32,000 nucleotides of DNA. Source: Thermofilum adornatum (lineage in GTDB: Archaea; Thermoproteota; Thermoprotei; Thermofilales; Thermofilaceae). The stretch spans positions 240,001 through 272,000 of the forward strand of contig NC_022093.1 of assembly GCF_000446015.1 (NCBI RefSeq), read 5' to 3'. Positions 23,013 to 25,989 of this stretch are shown here, piece after piece. Positions within the stretch are counted from its first letter, which is position 1. The number at the start of each line of letters is the position of its first letter. The notes under the pieces are model-generated. The model had not been told where the DNA came from. It worked only from the letters and a program-made list of their open reading frames with translations, and ran no database searches. The translations under genes and the position numbers were made by a program.

Positions 23013-23930
23013 CTATGCTCTTATCTGTGAAATACTGTCGACTACCGTCTTGATTTTCTGGAGAGTACTTTCAGGACTTGTTGGACTAGGTACAAGTAGT
23101 AGTGGTATATTGGTTTGAGACGAAAGCTCCTTGAGCTTCTCACCTAGGCTGGAAGCTAAGACATCGTCAGTGGCCACGATGAAAGAGGCCTTCCCTTTGT
23201 CTAATAGGTCCTTTGCTTGTGCAATGTCCTGGGGGGTTGCAGGGAGATCATGCTCCTTTATTAGGAGAAAAGATACGTTGATCCCCATCCAGTTTACCGC
23301 GTATTGGACAACTGGCGACGCGCCGATGGCATTGACTTTTAGTCTAGGAGCCTTCTGTATGATTGCCGTAATGTTGCTTTCCAAGATAGATTCCTTGGTT
23401 TTGTAAGTGTCCCTACATTCTGGCCTAAGATTAGCGAAAACGTTGCTTAGAGTCTTTATGTAGATGAGGTAGTTTGCGGGGTCATAGATTGGCCAATGAT
23501 AGTTTGGGTTTCCCGTGGCGGGATTCCTGAGAATTTTTATACCATCTATGCTTGGTATCTCCACTAGTTTGGCCTTTATCTCCCCATTCCTTACAAGTTC
23601 AGCTATTTTCGTTTCAAAGGGTGCATGAGCTGTTGAAATGATAATGTCTGCTTCCTTCAATTTAGCTACATCTGCAGGTGTTAACTGGTATTCGTGGGGG
23701 TCGACACCAGAAGGCGTAATTGAAAATACCACGTCGCCTGTGCAGGTCAGTAGATCTATATCTGGCTTCAAGGAGTAAAACGTTACAGCTATTTTTAAAC
23801 CATGAGTAGGAGCTGTCGTTGGATTATTCATATACAGATATGCTAGGAGGCCCGCGACTATGACTATTGCTATAACTACTAACAAGATTGATTTAGATGT
23901 GTGCACATTTTTAGTATTGTCTCTGCTCAT
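23013..23930 (-). CDS. metal ABC transporter substrate-binding protein, TroA/ZnuA (cluster A-I) type, N-terminally membrane-anchored
   Basis: N-terminal TM helix (ILLVVIAIVIVAGLLAYL), then IAVTFYSLKPDI..., the metal-site motif GVDPHEYQLTP, and ADIIISTAHAPFE, typical of the periplasmic solute-binding family 9. Confidence 0.8.
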   Translation of the reverse strand: MSRDNTKNVHTSKSILLVVIAIVIVAGLLAYLYMNNPTTAPTHGLKIAVTFYSLKPDIDLLTCTGDVVFSITPSGVDPHEYQLTPADVAKLKEADIIISTAHAPFETKIAELVRNGEIKAKLVEIPSIDGIKILRNPATGNPNYHWPIYDPANYLIYIKTLSNVFANLRPECRDTYKTKESILESNITAIIQKAPRLKVNAIGASPVVQYAVNWMGINVSFLLIKEHDLPATPQDIAQAKDLLDKGKASFIVATDDVLASSLGEKLKELSSQTNIPLLLVPSPTSPESTLQKIKTVVDSISQIRA

Positions 23931-24046
23931 ATGTGCACAATTAGAAAACCTCCATATAAATATTTCCTCTTTTCTCGCATGTGTTCCGCAAAATTAATAT
24001 AATTGTGCATAGTAATTAAGGTGGTACTCTATGAGTAATGTGCACA
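23900..24046. promoter_or_regulatory. divergent promoter region with four copies of palindromic TGTGCACA (candidate operator array)
   Basis: Perfect TGTGCACA at 23900..23907, 23932..23939 and 24039..24046, and 7/8 (TGTGCATA) at 24004..24011. Read outward from the centre, each side shows AATTGTGCA(C/T)A followed 32-35 bp later by AATGTGCACA. TATA-like AAATATTTATAT (minus) and AAAATTAATATAAT (plus) lie between the inner copies. Confidence 0.65.
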
Positions 24047-24792
24047 GCCCATCGCTAGTAGTAGAAAATGTGACTTTTCACTATGACGAAGATGACAAAA
24101 TCCTCGAAAATGAAAATCTAGCAGTCCACGGCCCAGGGCTTGTTACAATACTGGGACCTAATGGTTCAGGCAAAACAACATTTTTCAAAGTCATACTAGG
24201 ACTTCTTAAACCACAGACGGGAAAAATCTTTCTCAATGGAGAAGAAGTGACAGGAAACCCAGTGAAAGCCGGAAGACACGCAGCATTGGTTCCGCAGTTG
24301 ACAGCAGTGAGGAGAGACTTGCCTGTTACAGGTGCAGAGATAATCGAGTTTGTTCTCAGAAGTAGGAGGCAGTGTTCAGGTAAGTCTTGCAAGGAGAAAC
24401 TTAGAGAACTTGTGGAAATTGTAGGAGCTGAGAACTATTATAAAAAGAAGTTAAGCGAAATGAGCGGAGGCCAGTTGCAGAGAATACTGATTGCAAGGGC
24501 CCTTGCAACTGGTTCAAGCATACTGTTATTGGATGAGCCTTTTTCTGGTATCGATCCAGGCGGCAGGGAATATATCGTGGATTTTTTAAGGAAGACTTCT
24601 AGAGAAAAACTGATTCTCCTAACCACTCATGATCCGGTATTGACTATTAACTCTAGCAAAATGATAGTGATATTTAATAAGGGGGTCAAGGCTTATGGCT
24701 CTCCCGACCAAATATTCACTTTAGACTTATTGAGAAAGGCCTATGGTTCAAGTGTCCTGATGATCGAGAGATGCCTCCATGTCGTGGGCTGA
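24031..24792 (+). CDS. metal ABC transporter ATP-binding protein (ZnuC/TroB-like)
   Basis: Walker A GPNGSGKTT, signature LSEMSGGQLQR, Walker B ILLLDEPFSGID, H-loop TTHD. Confidence 0.9.
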   Translation: MSNVHSPSLVVENVTFHYDEDDKILENENLAVHGPGLVTILGPNGSGKTTFFKVILGLLKPQTGKIFLNGEEVTGNPVKAGRHAALVPQLTAVRRDLPVTGAEIIEFVLRSRRQCSGKSCKEKLRELVEIVGAENYYKKKLSEMSGGQLQRILIARALATGSSILLLDEPFSGIDPGGREYIVDFLRKTSREKLILLTTHDPVLTINSSKMIVIFNKGVKAYGSPDQIFTLDLLRKAYGSSVLMIERCLHVVG

Positions 24793-25603
24793 GGTGGTCT
24801 GGATGTACTTTGACCCACGTTGGCTTATAGTGATACTTGGTAGCGCCATATCTTTCAGCGTTCTTAGTCCAATTATCTATGCCAGGAAACTCAACTTTTT
24901 TGCTTCCACGCTTCCTCATTCCTCGCTTTTAGCCGTTACAATCGGCTATATGCTTGGCTTTTTGACTGGAACCCATCCGGTCTTGTGGGCAGTGCCTGTA
25001 AGCATTGTTCTGTCTCTGTTCCTTGTTGCCATTATTCATCGGGGTGTAAGCGAAGATAGTGCAACTTCGGTCTTTGTCGGTTTCTCTGTCTCTGCAAGCG
25101 TTGCGGCAATGTATTATATCTTAACAAATTTTCCTGCACAGACTAGTCTATGGTCCTATATCCTAGGCGACCCTCTGCTTGTCTCCTGGGAGGATACACT
25201 TCTCACTCTAGCAGTATGCATTCTAATAATCTTGATAGTGCTACCTATTTACATGAAGGAGATAGTTATTGGGCAGGACAGGGACGTGGCCCAAGTGCTA
25301 GGAATAAACGTCAAGCTTCACGATTACCTAGTCATCTTAACCCTAACCGTTGCATCAGTCACCATGCTTAAAACAGTTGGATTTGTAATTGAACACGTTG
25401 CTTTCCTAATGCCGGCGGTCATTGCCGCTGGTATCGCAAAGGACGCAAAAATGTTCCTAGTATACAGTGTCCTTGTCTCCGCTTTTGCTGGAATACTTTC
25501 TTTACTTTTGTCTATCTGGCTTAATCTAGCTCCATCAGCAGTATATGGCCTCCTCCTGGTAGGAATTTACTCAATCCTGCTTATGAGAAGGGGGTCAGAA
25601 TGA
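24779..25603 (+). CDS. metal ABC transporter permease (ABC-3 / ZnuB-TroC-like)
   Basis: 274 aa with about 8 hydrophobic helices. It overlaps the ATPase gene by 14 nt, and its position and size fit the ABC-3 permease family. Confidence 0.8.
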   Translation: MSWAEVVWMYFDPRWLIVILGSAISFSVLSPIIYARKLNFFASTLPHSSLLAVTIGYMLGFLTGTHPVLWAVPVSIVLSLFLVAIIHRGVSEDSATSVFVGFSVSASVAAMYYILTNFPAQTSLWSYILGDPLLVSWEDTLLTLAVCILIILIVLPIYMKEIVIGQDRDVAQVLGINVKLHDYLVILTLTVASVTMLKTVGFVIEHVAFLMPAVIAAGIAKDAKMFLVYSVLVSAFAGILSLLLSIWLNLAPSAVYGLLLVGIYSILLMRRGSE

Positions 25604-25989
25604 GCAGAAAGGAAAGGTTTGGAGTCTCTATGGATAAAGAACTCTTCGAGGAGTTGACAGATCTTTGCAGAGCCCTCAAAACTGACCGTTCACACATTGT
25701 GAACATGGCTACAAGGTACTTTATCCTTGAGAAGTTTCACTATGCGAAGCCGCATCAATGCGAGGGCGTAATGATTATGGGTTATCACCATGAAAAAGGC
25801 GAGGAGGTCAATAGCATAGTAGAAAAATACAGAGAGTTAATTCTCGGCAGGAGCCATTTCCACACTATGGACGATAATTGCTTGGAGGTTCTCTTTGTAC
25901 GAGGGGATTCTGAAAGAATTTTCTCGCTTGAAAAAGAGGTCGAGAATTATTGTGTAATGTGTAGATATATTCCTAGCCACAAACCATAA
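25600..25989 (+). CDS. nikR: NikR-family nickel-responsive ribbon-helix-helix regulator
   Basis: N-terminal RHH (RFGVSMDKELFEELTDL...RSHIVNMATRYFI). C-terminal ACT-like domain with SHFHTMDDNCLEVLFVRGD (HxHx5C, as in the E. coli NikR high-affinity Ni site) and upstream GYHHEKG. ATGA overlap with the permease stop. Confidence 0.8.
   Translation: MSRKERFGVSMDKELFEELTDLCRALKTDRSHIVNMATRYFILEKFHYAKPHQCEGVMIMGYHHEKGEEVNSIVEKYRELILGRSHFHTMDDNCLEVLFVRGDSERIFSLEKEVENYCVMCRYIPSHKP

Follow-up and report, generated by a model that had tools for sequence, protein, structure and literature searches.

Four copies of the 8-bp palindrome TGTGCACA, one of them imperfect, surround the divergent promoters of a metal-uptake ABC transporter operon in Thermofilum adornatum, within the 32-kb stretch of DNA analysed here (NC_022093.1, positions 240,001 to 272,000; hereafter the window). 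We propose that the NikR-fold regulator whose gene closes the same operon (25600-25989) uses these four boxes as its operator, a reading to which we assign a probability of roughly 0.78. It builds on the boxes themselves, their spacing, their place relative to the promoter elements and their conservation, and on the fold of the regulator and the invariance of its DNA-reading residues. The box recurs ahead of the same set of genes (for a ZnuA-like binding protein, an ABC ATPase, a permease and a 130-aa NikR-fold regulator), within their control region, at more than 100 related loci from Thermofilaceae, Korarchaeota, Desulfurococcales, Pyrodictiaceae, Acidilobaceae and Ignisphaera, and the boxes are tied exclusively to this operon plus one membrane-protein gene. 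The boxes are numbered by window position, left to right:

Box 1, 23900..23907, no strand: TGTGCACA; centre at +26.5 from the ATG of the binding-protein gene, covering +24 to +31, in codons 8-11 (MSRDNTKNVHT).
Box 2, 23932..23939, no strand: TGTGCACA; centre at -5.5 from the binding-protein ATG, covering -2 to -9, with the TATA box on its far side.
Box 3, 24004..24011, no strand: TGTGCATA, a 7/8 match; centre at -23.5 from the ATPase ATG, just 3' of the TATA box.
Box 4, 24039..24046, no strand: TGTGCACA; in ATPase codons 3-6 (MSNVHS), GTG-CAC being read as Val-His, about 15-22 bp into the predicted transcript.

A preliminary description of this DNA had reported three perfect palindromes and one 7/8 copy within 147 bp, and the positions (23900, 23932 and 24039, and 24004 for the imperfect copy) were reproduced, as were the spacings of 32 bp between boxes 1 and 2 and 35 bp between boxes 3 and 4; the two pairs are 72 bp apart, measured from box 2 to box 3. 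The placement it gave for each box also held: Box 2 adjoins the start of the binding-protein gene, with 1 nt separating it from the CAT (minus-strand ATG), box 3 lies between the TATA-like TTAATATA and the ATPase start, and the outer boxes 1 and 4 lie inside the first codons of the two divergent genes, both of which thereby encode Asn-Val-His.

The local clustering of boxes is far above random expectation: An order-1 Markov model of the window predicts, analytically, 0.27 copies of TGTGCACA per 32 kb; for a cluster of three copies within 147 bp, the expected number is about 2e-7. The earlier estimate of about 1e-4 was thus conservative. No perfect TGTGCACA occurs elsewhere in the 32-kb window beyond the three. 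Because sites with at most one mismatch are not enriched across the window (10 found vs 8 expected), the signal is one of local clustering.

The nearest relatives of the regulator and of the binding protein are found in Thermofilum and Infirmifilum, which places the window in the Thermofilaceae and not in the Desulfurococcales, as the preliminary description had assumed, although Desulfurococcales do carry the same system. The only other cluster close to the regulator (66% identity) comes from a Thermofilum metagenome-assembled genome (MAG) that represents a sister species, and its contigs are syntenic with the window. This species keeps four boxes, TGTGCATA, TGTGCACA, CGTGCACA and TGTGCACA. 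The counterpart of box 1 (TGTGCATA, L001 8292) has the same offset from the start codon and is kept though the encoded residues change from N-V-H-T to I-M-H-K; box 2 is identical and at the same offset in L001-L006; and the counterpart of box 3 is CGTGCACA (L001 8406). Boxes 1 and 2 are again exactly 32 bp apart and boxes 3 and 4 are 33 bp apart (35 bp in the window), while the distance between the pairs drifts, from 72 bp in the window to 79 bp in a TA-expanded strain and 82 bp in the sister species. The sequence around the boxes is largely diverged.

The flanks of the boxes are not part of what is conserved. The window does contain the mirrored AAT/AATT flanks described earlier, AATTGTGCA on the inner pair and AATGTGCACA on the outer pair, but these are not kept in the sister species and are lost even in L009, a strain of the window's own species, where the flank reads ATACTGTGCATA. 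The 34 boxes compared share the consensus (T/c)GTGCAC(A/g), and their flanks show just a weak A/T preference. In two same-species strains (L009 820-830 and L010 521-531) a TA-repeat expansion, TATATATATATAC, lies between the TATA box and box 3 (window 23994-24003); it lengthens the inter-pair distance from 72 to 79 bp and alters the AATT flank of box 3, and both intra-pair spacings are unchanged. The sister species also has an additional perfect TGTGCACA about 190 bp into the binding-protein gene (L001 8131) and, close to where a metallophosphoesterase-like gene begins, a further two boxes with a GTGCAC core, separated by 117 bp (L001 12418 and 12535); none of these has a partner at 32 bp.

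Ten further loci with the same divergent operon were reached through binding-protein homologues: Thermofilum pendens Hrk5, Infirmifilum lucidum, Infirmifilum sp. NZ, the Thermofilaceae MAG L014, the metagenome contigs L015 (with the same gene neighbourhood) and L016 (from JGI), a Korarchaeota MAG, a Zestosphaera MAG and two deep-branching relatives. In all ten, the control region contains boxes with a GTGCAC core. Their number is four in Thermofilum and Infirmifilum, where the relative positions (0/32/74/105 or 0/41/73/115) come near to whole helical turns, three in L014 and L015, and two in Korarchaeota, Zestosphaera and the deep branch, with spacings of 32, 32, 34 and 35 bp. Across about 156 kb from 11 lineages, box pairs no more than 120 bp apart all fall in this control region, save one at 117 bp. 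In the two-box lineages, the pair flanks an AT-rich spacer that holds the TATA of both divergent, apparently leaderless promoters. The Korarchaeota locus is the most compact: Its intergenic region of 52 bp consists of 13 bp, a box, 24 bp with TTTATATT (TATA) and a second box directly followed by the ATG, and these two boxes are the only GTGCAC hexamers in 11 kb. A region of just 52 bp leaves no room for another operator. The position of the regulator gene is conserved in more than 60 loci. The box in the ATPase gene is always in the frame GTG-CAC and encodes Val-His (Met-His in T. pendens) within an otherwise unconserved N-terminus (L001, L011-L015 and the window), and in Infirmifilum sp. NZ the GTG of the box is annotated as the ATPase start codon.

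A metagenome scan with an alignment of the binding protein (A3) returned 80 loci, in whose control regions the pair spacings are 32 bp (55-56 times), 33 bp (17-21 times), 31 bp (once), 34 bp (once) and 35 bp (twice). No strict box pair was found outside the control region in about 0.47 Mb of these loci. Of the loci in which the control region is complete and the regulator is encoded in cis, 50 of 50 have the pair; L211, L216 and L218 were seen by inspection to have 32-bp pairs. Among the 50, three have one degenerate box (CATGCACA or TATGCATA), one has a spacing of 74 bp and three have perfect boxes 42 bp, or four turns, apart with the regulator in cis (L172 3291/3333, L186 3976/4018 and L207 1466/1508); neighbouring boxes 41-42 bp apart also occur in T. 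pendens and Infirmifilum. Conversely, three complete loci that lack the regulator gene (L154, L174 and L180) have a TATA box and no boxes.

The alignment of orthologous control regions, which had been suggested as a check, thus finds box and pair spacing conserved across lineages, and the boxes are under selection. The conserved unit is a box pair on either side of the TATA box or the transcription start, with centres 32-33 bp apart and, in rare cases, 34-35 or 42 bp apart. The idea of a multi-site operator over both divergent promoters is supported by comparative conservation, with the correction that the four-box mirror array is an elaboration of the Thermofilaceae, other lineages having two or three boxes.

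When 596 Gb of genomes were searched for TGTGCACA-N24-TGTGCACA, blind to any protein information, at least 120 matches came up. Of the 120 matches listed, 19 have the pair in this operon, with the binding-protein gene on one side and the ATPase gene on the other; they are from MAGs of Hyperthermus, Pyrodictium/Pyrodictiaceae, Acidilobaceae, Ignisphaera, Desulfurococcales/-ceae and Thermofilum, and the regulator was found in the scan loci wherever the 8-kb stretch extended to the end of the operon. Four more of the matches listed, from Desulfurococcales and Acidilobaceae, have the arrangement TATA-box-N24-box/ATG before a conserved gene whose product is a membrane protein of about 305 aa (L136 5137-6087, L032 34-1008, L125 3455-4416 and L133 6213-7181). 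This polytopic protein carries the motif HGATPDEH (GLLHGATPDEHTWPITFSY); it has no match in NCBIfam or the PDB, and its only match, to LysE-type proteins, is sub-threshold. It looks like a second member of the regulon, and it is possibly a metal transporter.

The remaining matches listed are unrelated to this operon and comprise about 14 from Saccharopolyspora, six or seven archaeal ones (six of them DPANN), one Cenarchaeum repeat and scattered bacterial ones at about chance level. In Saccharopolyspora the same 40-bp pattern (L024 1335, L026 6397, L027 7281, L037 2910, L041 354, L051 748 and about eight more) has a spacer with TGTGGATAA/TTGTCCACA-type sequences that resemble DnaA boxes, so these sites are probably a replication origin unrelated to the archaeal operator. 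In the Cenarchaeum MAG (L112 4029-4560) the match lies in an extended tandem repeat of TTGTGCACA/TTGTGCTC-like units, also unrelated to the operator. In the DPANN genomes (Woesearchaeota, Nanoarchaeota and an unclassified archaeon) and one Methanosarcinales-labelled MAG, GTA-TGTGCACA-N24-TGTGCACA-TAC surrounds a TATA box (L063 7857-7896, L069 254-293, L077 6540-6579, L081 3906-3945, L099 220-259, L048 5244-5283 and L097 3771-3810); box and spacing match those of the operon, in a different gene context.

These comparisons bear on the alternative that the clustering in the window results from chance, from a constraint to encode Val-His or from the distribution of GTGCAC restriction sites. Two of the four boxes do lie in coding sequence, and GTGCAC is somewhat rare elsewhere in these loci. 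But boxes 2 and 3 are non-coding, box 1 outlasts the residues that it encodes, hardly any such cluster is expected under the Markov model, and the DNA-only scan recovers the same pair at the same operon in more than 20 distant genomes. The comparative data refute chance and coding constraint for practical purposes, and we give this explanation virtually no probability.

The protein encoded at the end of the operon is a relative of NikR. Its score against Pfam NikR_C (34.8) exceeds the cut-off of 22, that against RHH_3 (20.4) is just below the cut-off of 21.6, and phmmer aligns residues 6-110 with Pyrococcus horikoshii NikR (E 3e-8). An AlphaFold monomer model, built from an alignment of 33 relatives (pLDDT 92), displays a beta-alpha-alpha unit followed by beta-alpha-beta-beta-alpha-beta, and the top 45 Foldseek matches to it are all NikR, the best of them full-length proteins (TM up to 0.76, reached with P. 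horikoshii NikR; 0.73-0.76 for the NikRs of E. coli, H. pylori and P. horikoshii). According to this model, the regulator has the NikR fold, a ribbon-helix-helix (RHH) domain joined to the ACT-like NikR_C domain. It does not reach the curated NikR thresholds (NF003381, 52.3 vs 105 bits; TIGR02793, 31 vs 175). In a profile search, members of its subfamily score 204-79 bits and canonical NikRs follow from 68 bits down, with a clear gap between them; the subfamily comprises about 50 clusters, all from thermophilic archaea and labelled just "CopG family" or "hypothetical".

Among 33 members (26-65% identity), R6, G8, S10, S31, H47, C54 and G56 are invariant, and K4, F7, R30, H52 and P125 nearly so. 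The DNA-reading strand is K-x-R-F-G-V/I-S (K4 to S10), in which R6, G8 and S10 align with R3, T5 and T7 of Escherichia coli NikR, the residues with which that strand contacts the bases. An invariant reading strand is thus matched to an invariant box core. The high-affinity square-planar nickel site of NikR is formed by His87, His89 and Cys95 together with His76 of the neighbouring chain (PMC7055735). The equivalents of H87, H89 and C95 (H86, H88 and C94) are kept in most members, the position of H76 falls in a 3-residue deletion, and an added motif, H47-x4-H52-x-C54, is present, with H47 and C54 invariant and H52 nearly so. The L019/L020 clade has lost all three His/Cys equivalents and kept the H-x4-H-x-C region. 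The earlier suggestion of a NikR-type binder is supported by fold, cis linkage and invariant strand; since the regulator scores below those thresholds and one ligand is lost, nickel is not to be assumed as the effector.

The promoters and genes around the boxes are as follows:

23953..23960, minus strand: putative TATA box of the binding-protein promoter, TTTATATG, read from the sequence, about 30 bp 5' of the ATG at 23930.
23994..24001, plus strand: putative TATA box of the ATPase-permease-regulator operon, TTAATATA, directly 5' of box 3; predicted transcription start near 24024.
23013..23930, minus strand: substrate-binding protein of the ZnuA family (cluster A-I; Pfam ZnuA 71 bits).
24031..24792, plus strand: ABC transporter ATPase, the first rightward gene (Pfam ABC_tran 94 bits).
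24779..25603, plus strand: ABC-3 family permease (Pfam ABC-3 91 bits).
25600..25989, plus strand: NikR-fold regulator of 129 aa with RHH and NikR_C domains (Pfam NikR_C 34.8 bits), the proposed binder of the boxes.

The TATA boxes and start sites are assigned from the sequence by the general archaeal rule that the TATA box is centred near -26, and are predictions in that sense. A TATA box some 30 bp 5' of the binding-protein ATG implies a leaderless mRNA. The order of TATA, then box, recurs in T. pendens, I. lucidum and Infirmifilum sp. NZ, and the TATA box and the TGTGCACA box are the only promoter motifs conserved in these loci. Because the regulator gene starts 4 bp inside the permease gene, the two belong to one operon and are co-transcribed, and the regulator gene is probably autoregulated. 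Operons of the znuABC type may be controlled by Fur/Zur or DtxR proteins, which act at an AT-rich promoter box of 15-19 bp; no Fur- or DtxR-family gene was found within or beside the operon, in the window or in any retrieved locus.

The position of box 3 also bears on whether the boxes might act in RNA, since each is self-complementary and boxes 3 and 4 could form an mRNA hairpin that encloses the ATPase start codon and ribosome-binding region. The two boxes are indeed paired in the minimum-energy fold of 24000-24060, but its energy (-11.4 kcal/mol at 37 C, vs a mean of -11.8 for shuffled sequences; z = 0.17) shows no extra stability, and the hosts are hyperthermophiles. The box region has no match to an Rfam family, and no compensatory changes between paired boxes are seen, both members retaining one and the same palindrome. 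Box 3 directly follows the TATA box and hence lies 5' of the likely start, and in two-box lineages the boxes flank the TATA element and belong to different transcripts. We consider a role in RNA very unlikely.

As operator of the NikR-fold regulator, the boxes would work as follows. Each 8-bp palindrome, with its core GTGCAC, would dock one two-fold-symmetric RHH dimer directly. The regulator, expected from NikR homology to be a tetramer with two RHH dimers, would grip a pair of boxes that face the same side of the helix at a distance of three turns (32-33 bp). In the window, the pair of boxes 1 and 2 would cover the leaderless binding-protein start, and that of boxes 3 and 4 would bracket the predicted start of the ATPase-permease-regulator operon just 3' of its TATA box; in the two-box lineages (Korarchaeota, Desulfurococcales), a single pair would clamp the TATA element shared by the divergent promoters. 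Once the cell has enough of the transported metal, regulator loaded with it would sit on the boxes and block TBP/TFB or RNA polymerase, which would shut off both the uptake system and the regulator's own gene. It is the overlap of the boxes with the TATA and start, or their position beside them, that leads us to propose metal-dependent repression. That the boxes come in pairs fits a complex with two DNA-binding units, and NikR tetramers bind two hemi-operators on one DNA face (PMC5385501; PMC7055735).

The direction of this control can be read differently. The regulator may bind as an activator, or in a metal-free form that is released by metal: Helicobacter pylori NikR both activates and represses (PMC7949043), and the L019/L020 clade has no NikR-type His/Cys site. 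Boxes at the TATA element and start site are, for archaeal promoters in general, in the positions of a repressor, and uptake systems are normally repressed by the metal-loaded sensor. Activation or metal-free binding is accordingly unlikely in our judgement, and repression by the metal-loaded form is the version we prefer.

Several observations weigh against the regulator as the binder of the boxes. The spacing of 32-33 bp exceeds by one turn the two turns that characterised NikR tetramers span, with a domain linker no longer than theirs, so one tetramer per pair would need an extended conformation or bent DNA, perhaps by bending of the AT-rich spacer. The 42-bp variants, together with the 35-bp spacing in the window, would call for unusual flexibility or for one tetramer per box. 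There are also pairs that lack a regulator in cis: A lineage with a fused gene (L182, L195, L197 and L209) has a perfect 32-bp pair and no regulator gene in the locus, and none is near the four membrane-protein genes, so a regulator encoded elsewhere has to be assumed for both. In addition, six DPANN loci have the same 8-mer pair at 32 bp about 15 bp 5' of a 312-aa Fic/DOC-family gene, and no NikR-like gene was found within the 8 kb retrieved. In the fused-gene lineage, binding protein and permease form a single protein of 627 aa (L195 3304-5187 and L197 3920-5803; also in L182 and L209), and the genes that follow the operon, on the opposite strand, are 2-oxoacid:ferredoxin oxidoreductase-like.

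The boxes could accordingly be a genuine operator of another, unlinked factor, for example of the Fur/Zur, DtxR, ArsR or TrmB type, while the NikR-like protein acts elsewhere. The pairs without a cis regulator (in the fused-gene lineage, the membrane-protein loci and DPANN) and a three-turn spacing outside the known NikR geometry would fit such a factor. It would leave unexplained, though, that the NikR-like gene is the sole regulator gene consistently linked to the boxes, in at least six lineages and two gene orders, that the three complete loci without it have no boxes, and that its DNA-reading strand is invariant in step with the box core. An 8-bp palindrome with abutting 4-bp halves also fits an RHH dimer better than a helix-turn-helix dimer, and the Korarchaeota region of 52 bp offers the cis regulator no alternative site. 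An unlinked factor is therefore, in our estimate, improbable, and the NikR-fold regulator remains our preferred candidate.

The proposed operator shares features with that of NikR and departs from it in architecture. The NikR operators of the E. coli, H. pylori and P. horikoshii systems (GTATGA-N16-TCATAC; TRTTA-N15-TAWTA) have two hemi-sites about 20-22 bp, or two turns, apart, which one tetramer binds (PMC5385501, PMC7055735). Common to both are the fold, RHH plus ACT-like metal-binding domain, with equivalents of H87, H89 and C95 in most members; a regulator gene beside a metal-uptake ABC transporter that it presumably represses; and an operator whose two symmetric elements face the same side of the DNA. 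Here, in contrast, each element is itself an 8-bp palindrome, the centres are three turns instead of two apart, H76 is deleted and H47-x4-H52-x-C54 added, and the transporter targeted belongs to the ZnuA family (cluster A-I) instead of being NikABCDE, NikMNQO or NiCoT. The NikR signal predicted for delta-proteobacteria, GTGTTAC-N13/14-GTAACAC (Rodionov et al. 2004, PMC545781), was likewise derived by comparative genomics of promoters beside nikR and is a dyad pair with the outermost bases GTG...CAC. It is, though, an inverted repeat of 27-28 bp with non-palindromic 7-bp halves at two-turn spacing, whereas each box here has GTG directly joined to CAC, and it is whole boxes that are 32 bp apart.

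Two other kinds of system are related in part. The met-box of MetJ (8 bp, AGACGTCT) docks one RHH dimer, and several boxes, in contiguous tandem repeats, are read cooperatively. As in MetJ, Arc and CopG, the box described here is a short palindrome matched to the two-fold axis of one RHH dimer; unlike theirs, the boxes are at least 31 bp apart in every lineage, neither adjacent nor within one turn. Between them lie 24 bp of AT-rich promoter DNA, in contrast to MetJ, and a tetramerisation domain of the NikR type would link the dimers. MDR1 of Archaeoglobus fulgidus is a metal-dependent repressor of the DtxR family, with a helix-turn-helix fold, that acts on its ABC transporter operon. There too, a metal-uptake ABC operon encodes its own repressor (here a proposed one), the operators overlap the core promoter and start, and repression probably works by keeping RNA polymerase or TBP/TFB off the promoter; operator and fold differ, with a NikR-fold RHH protein and a box pair flanking the TATA element here.

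The literature gave no description of the box motif, of the regulator subfamily or of NikR in Thermofilum, in a search that did not cover a 2006 Rodionov study of nickel/cobalt transporters, and full-text searches for TGTGCACA returned just primers and unrelated eukaryotic motifs. The view that the motif differs from the E. coli NikR operator and is undescribed is borne out by its different architecture and by this search. What appears to be new is the combination of a regulator of the NikR fold with an unfamiliar operator layout, a changed set of ligands and a transporter of the ZnuA type as target.

The transporter itself points to an unusual metal site. The nearest solved structures to the binding protein are those of YfeA and MntC, which are Mn/Fe proteins. 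Relative to YfeA, both canonical ligands of the C-lobe are replaced (E207 by Ser and D282 by Pro), the N-lobe histidines H78 and H144 are kept, and the alignment A3 displays an invariant STAH-APFE motif (H101, E105) of the protein's own. With the C-lobe ligands replaced and H101 and E105 added, its metal site is unusual, and by sequence the protein belongs to an atypical archaeal subfamily of the ZnuA family. The metal may still be nickel.

Taken together, regulator, operator and transporter permit a more specific picture, which we offer as tentative and on balance doubtful in its entirety. In it, a branch of the NikR fold no longer senses nickel and instead responds to another metal (Zn, Mn, Fe or a chelate) through H-x4-H-x-C at the domain junction; one tetramer would clamp two palindromes three turns apart around the TATA element, resist the bend imposed by TBP and silence two divergent leaderless promoters; and a small regulon, consisting of the ABC transporter and a new membrane transporter, would be common to Thermoproteota and Korarchaeota.

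NikR is regarded as a narrow nickel sensor and as the sole metal-regulated RHH protein (PMC7055735), and a 2026 survey placed 86.5% of the NikR family in one cluster presumed to be nickel-responsive. The proteins described here would form a distinct archaeal branch of the NikR fold, with another ligand set, another transporter target and an operator one turn longer. The box pair may serve as an annotation marker for the operon, and it has already pointed to the membrane protein as a likely second gene of metal homeostasis. Its core is invariant, its spacing is fixed and over 100 natural variants of it exist, so this well-supported predicted operator of hyperthermophiles would be suited to the study of how bidirectional leaderless promoters are shut off.

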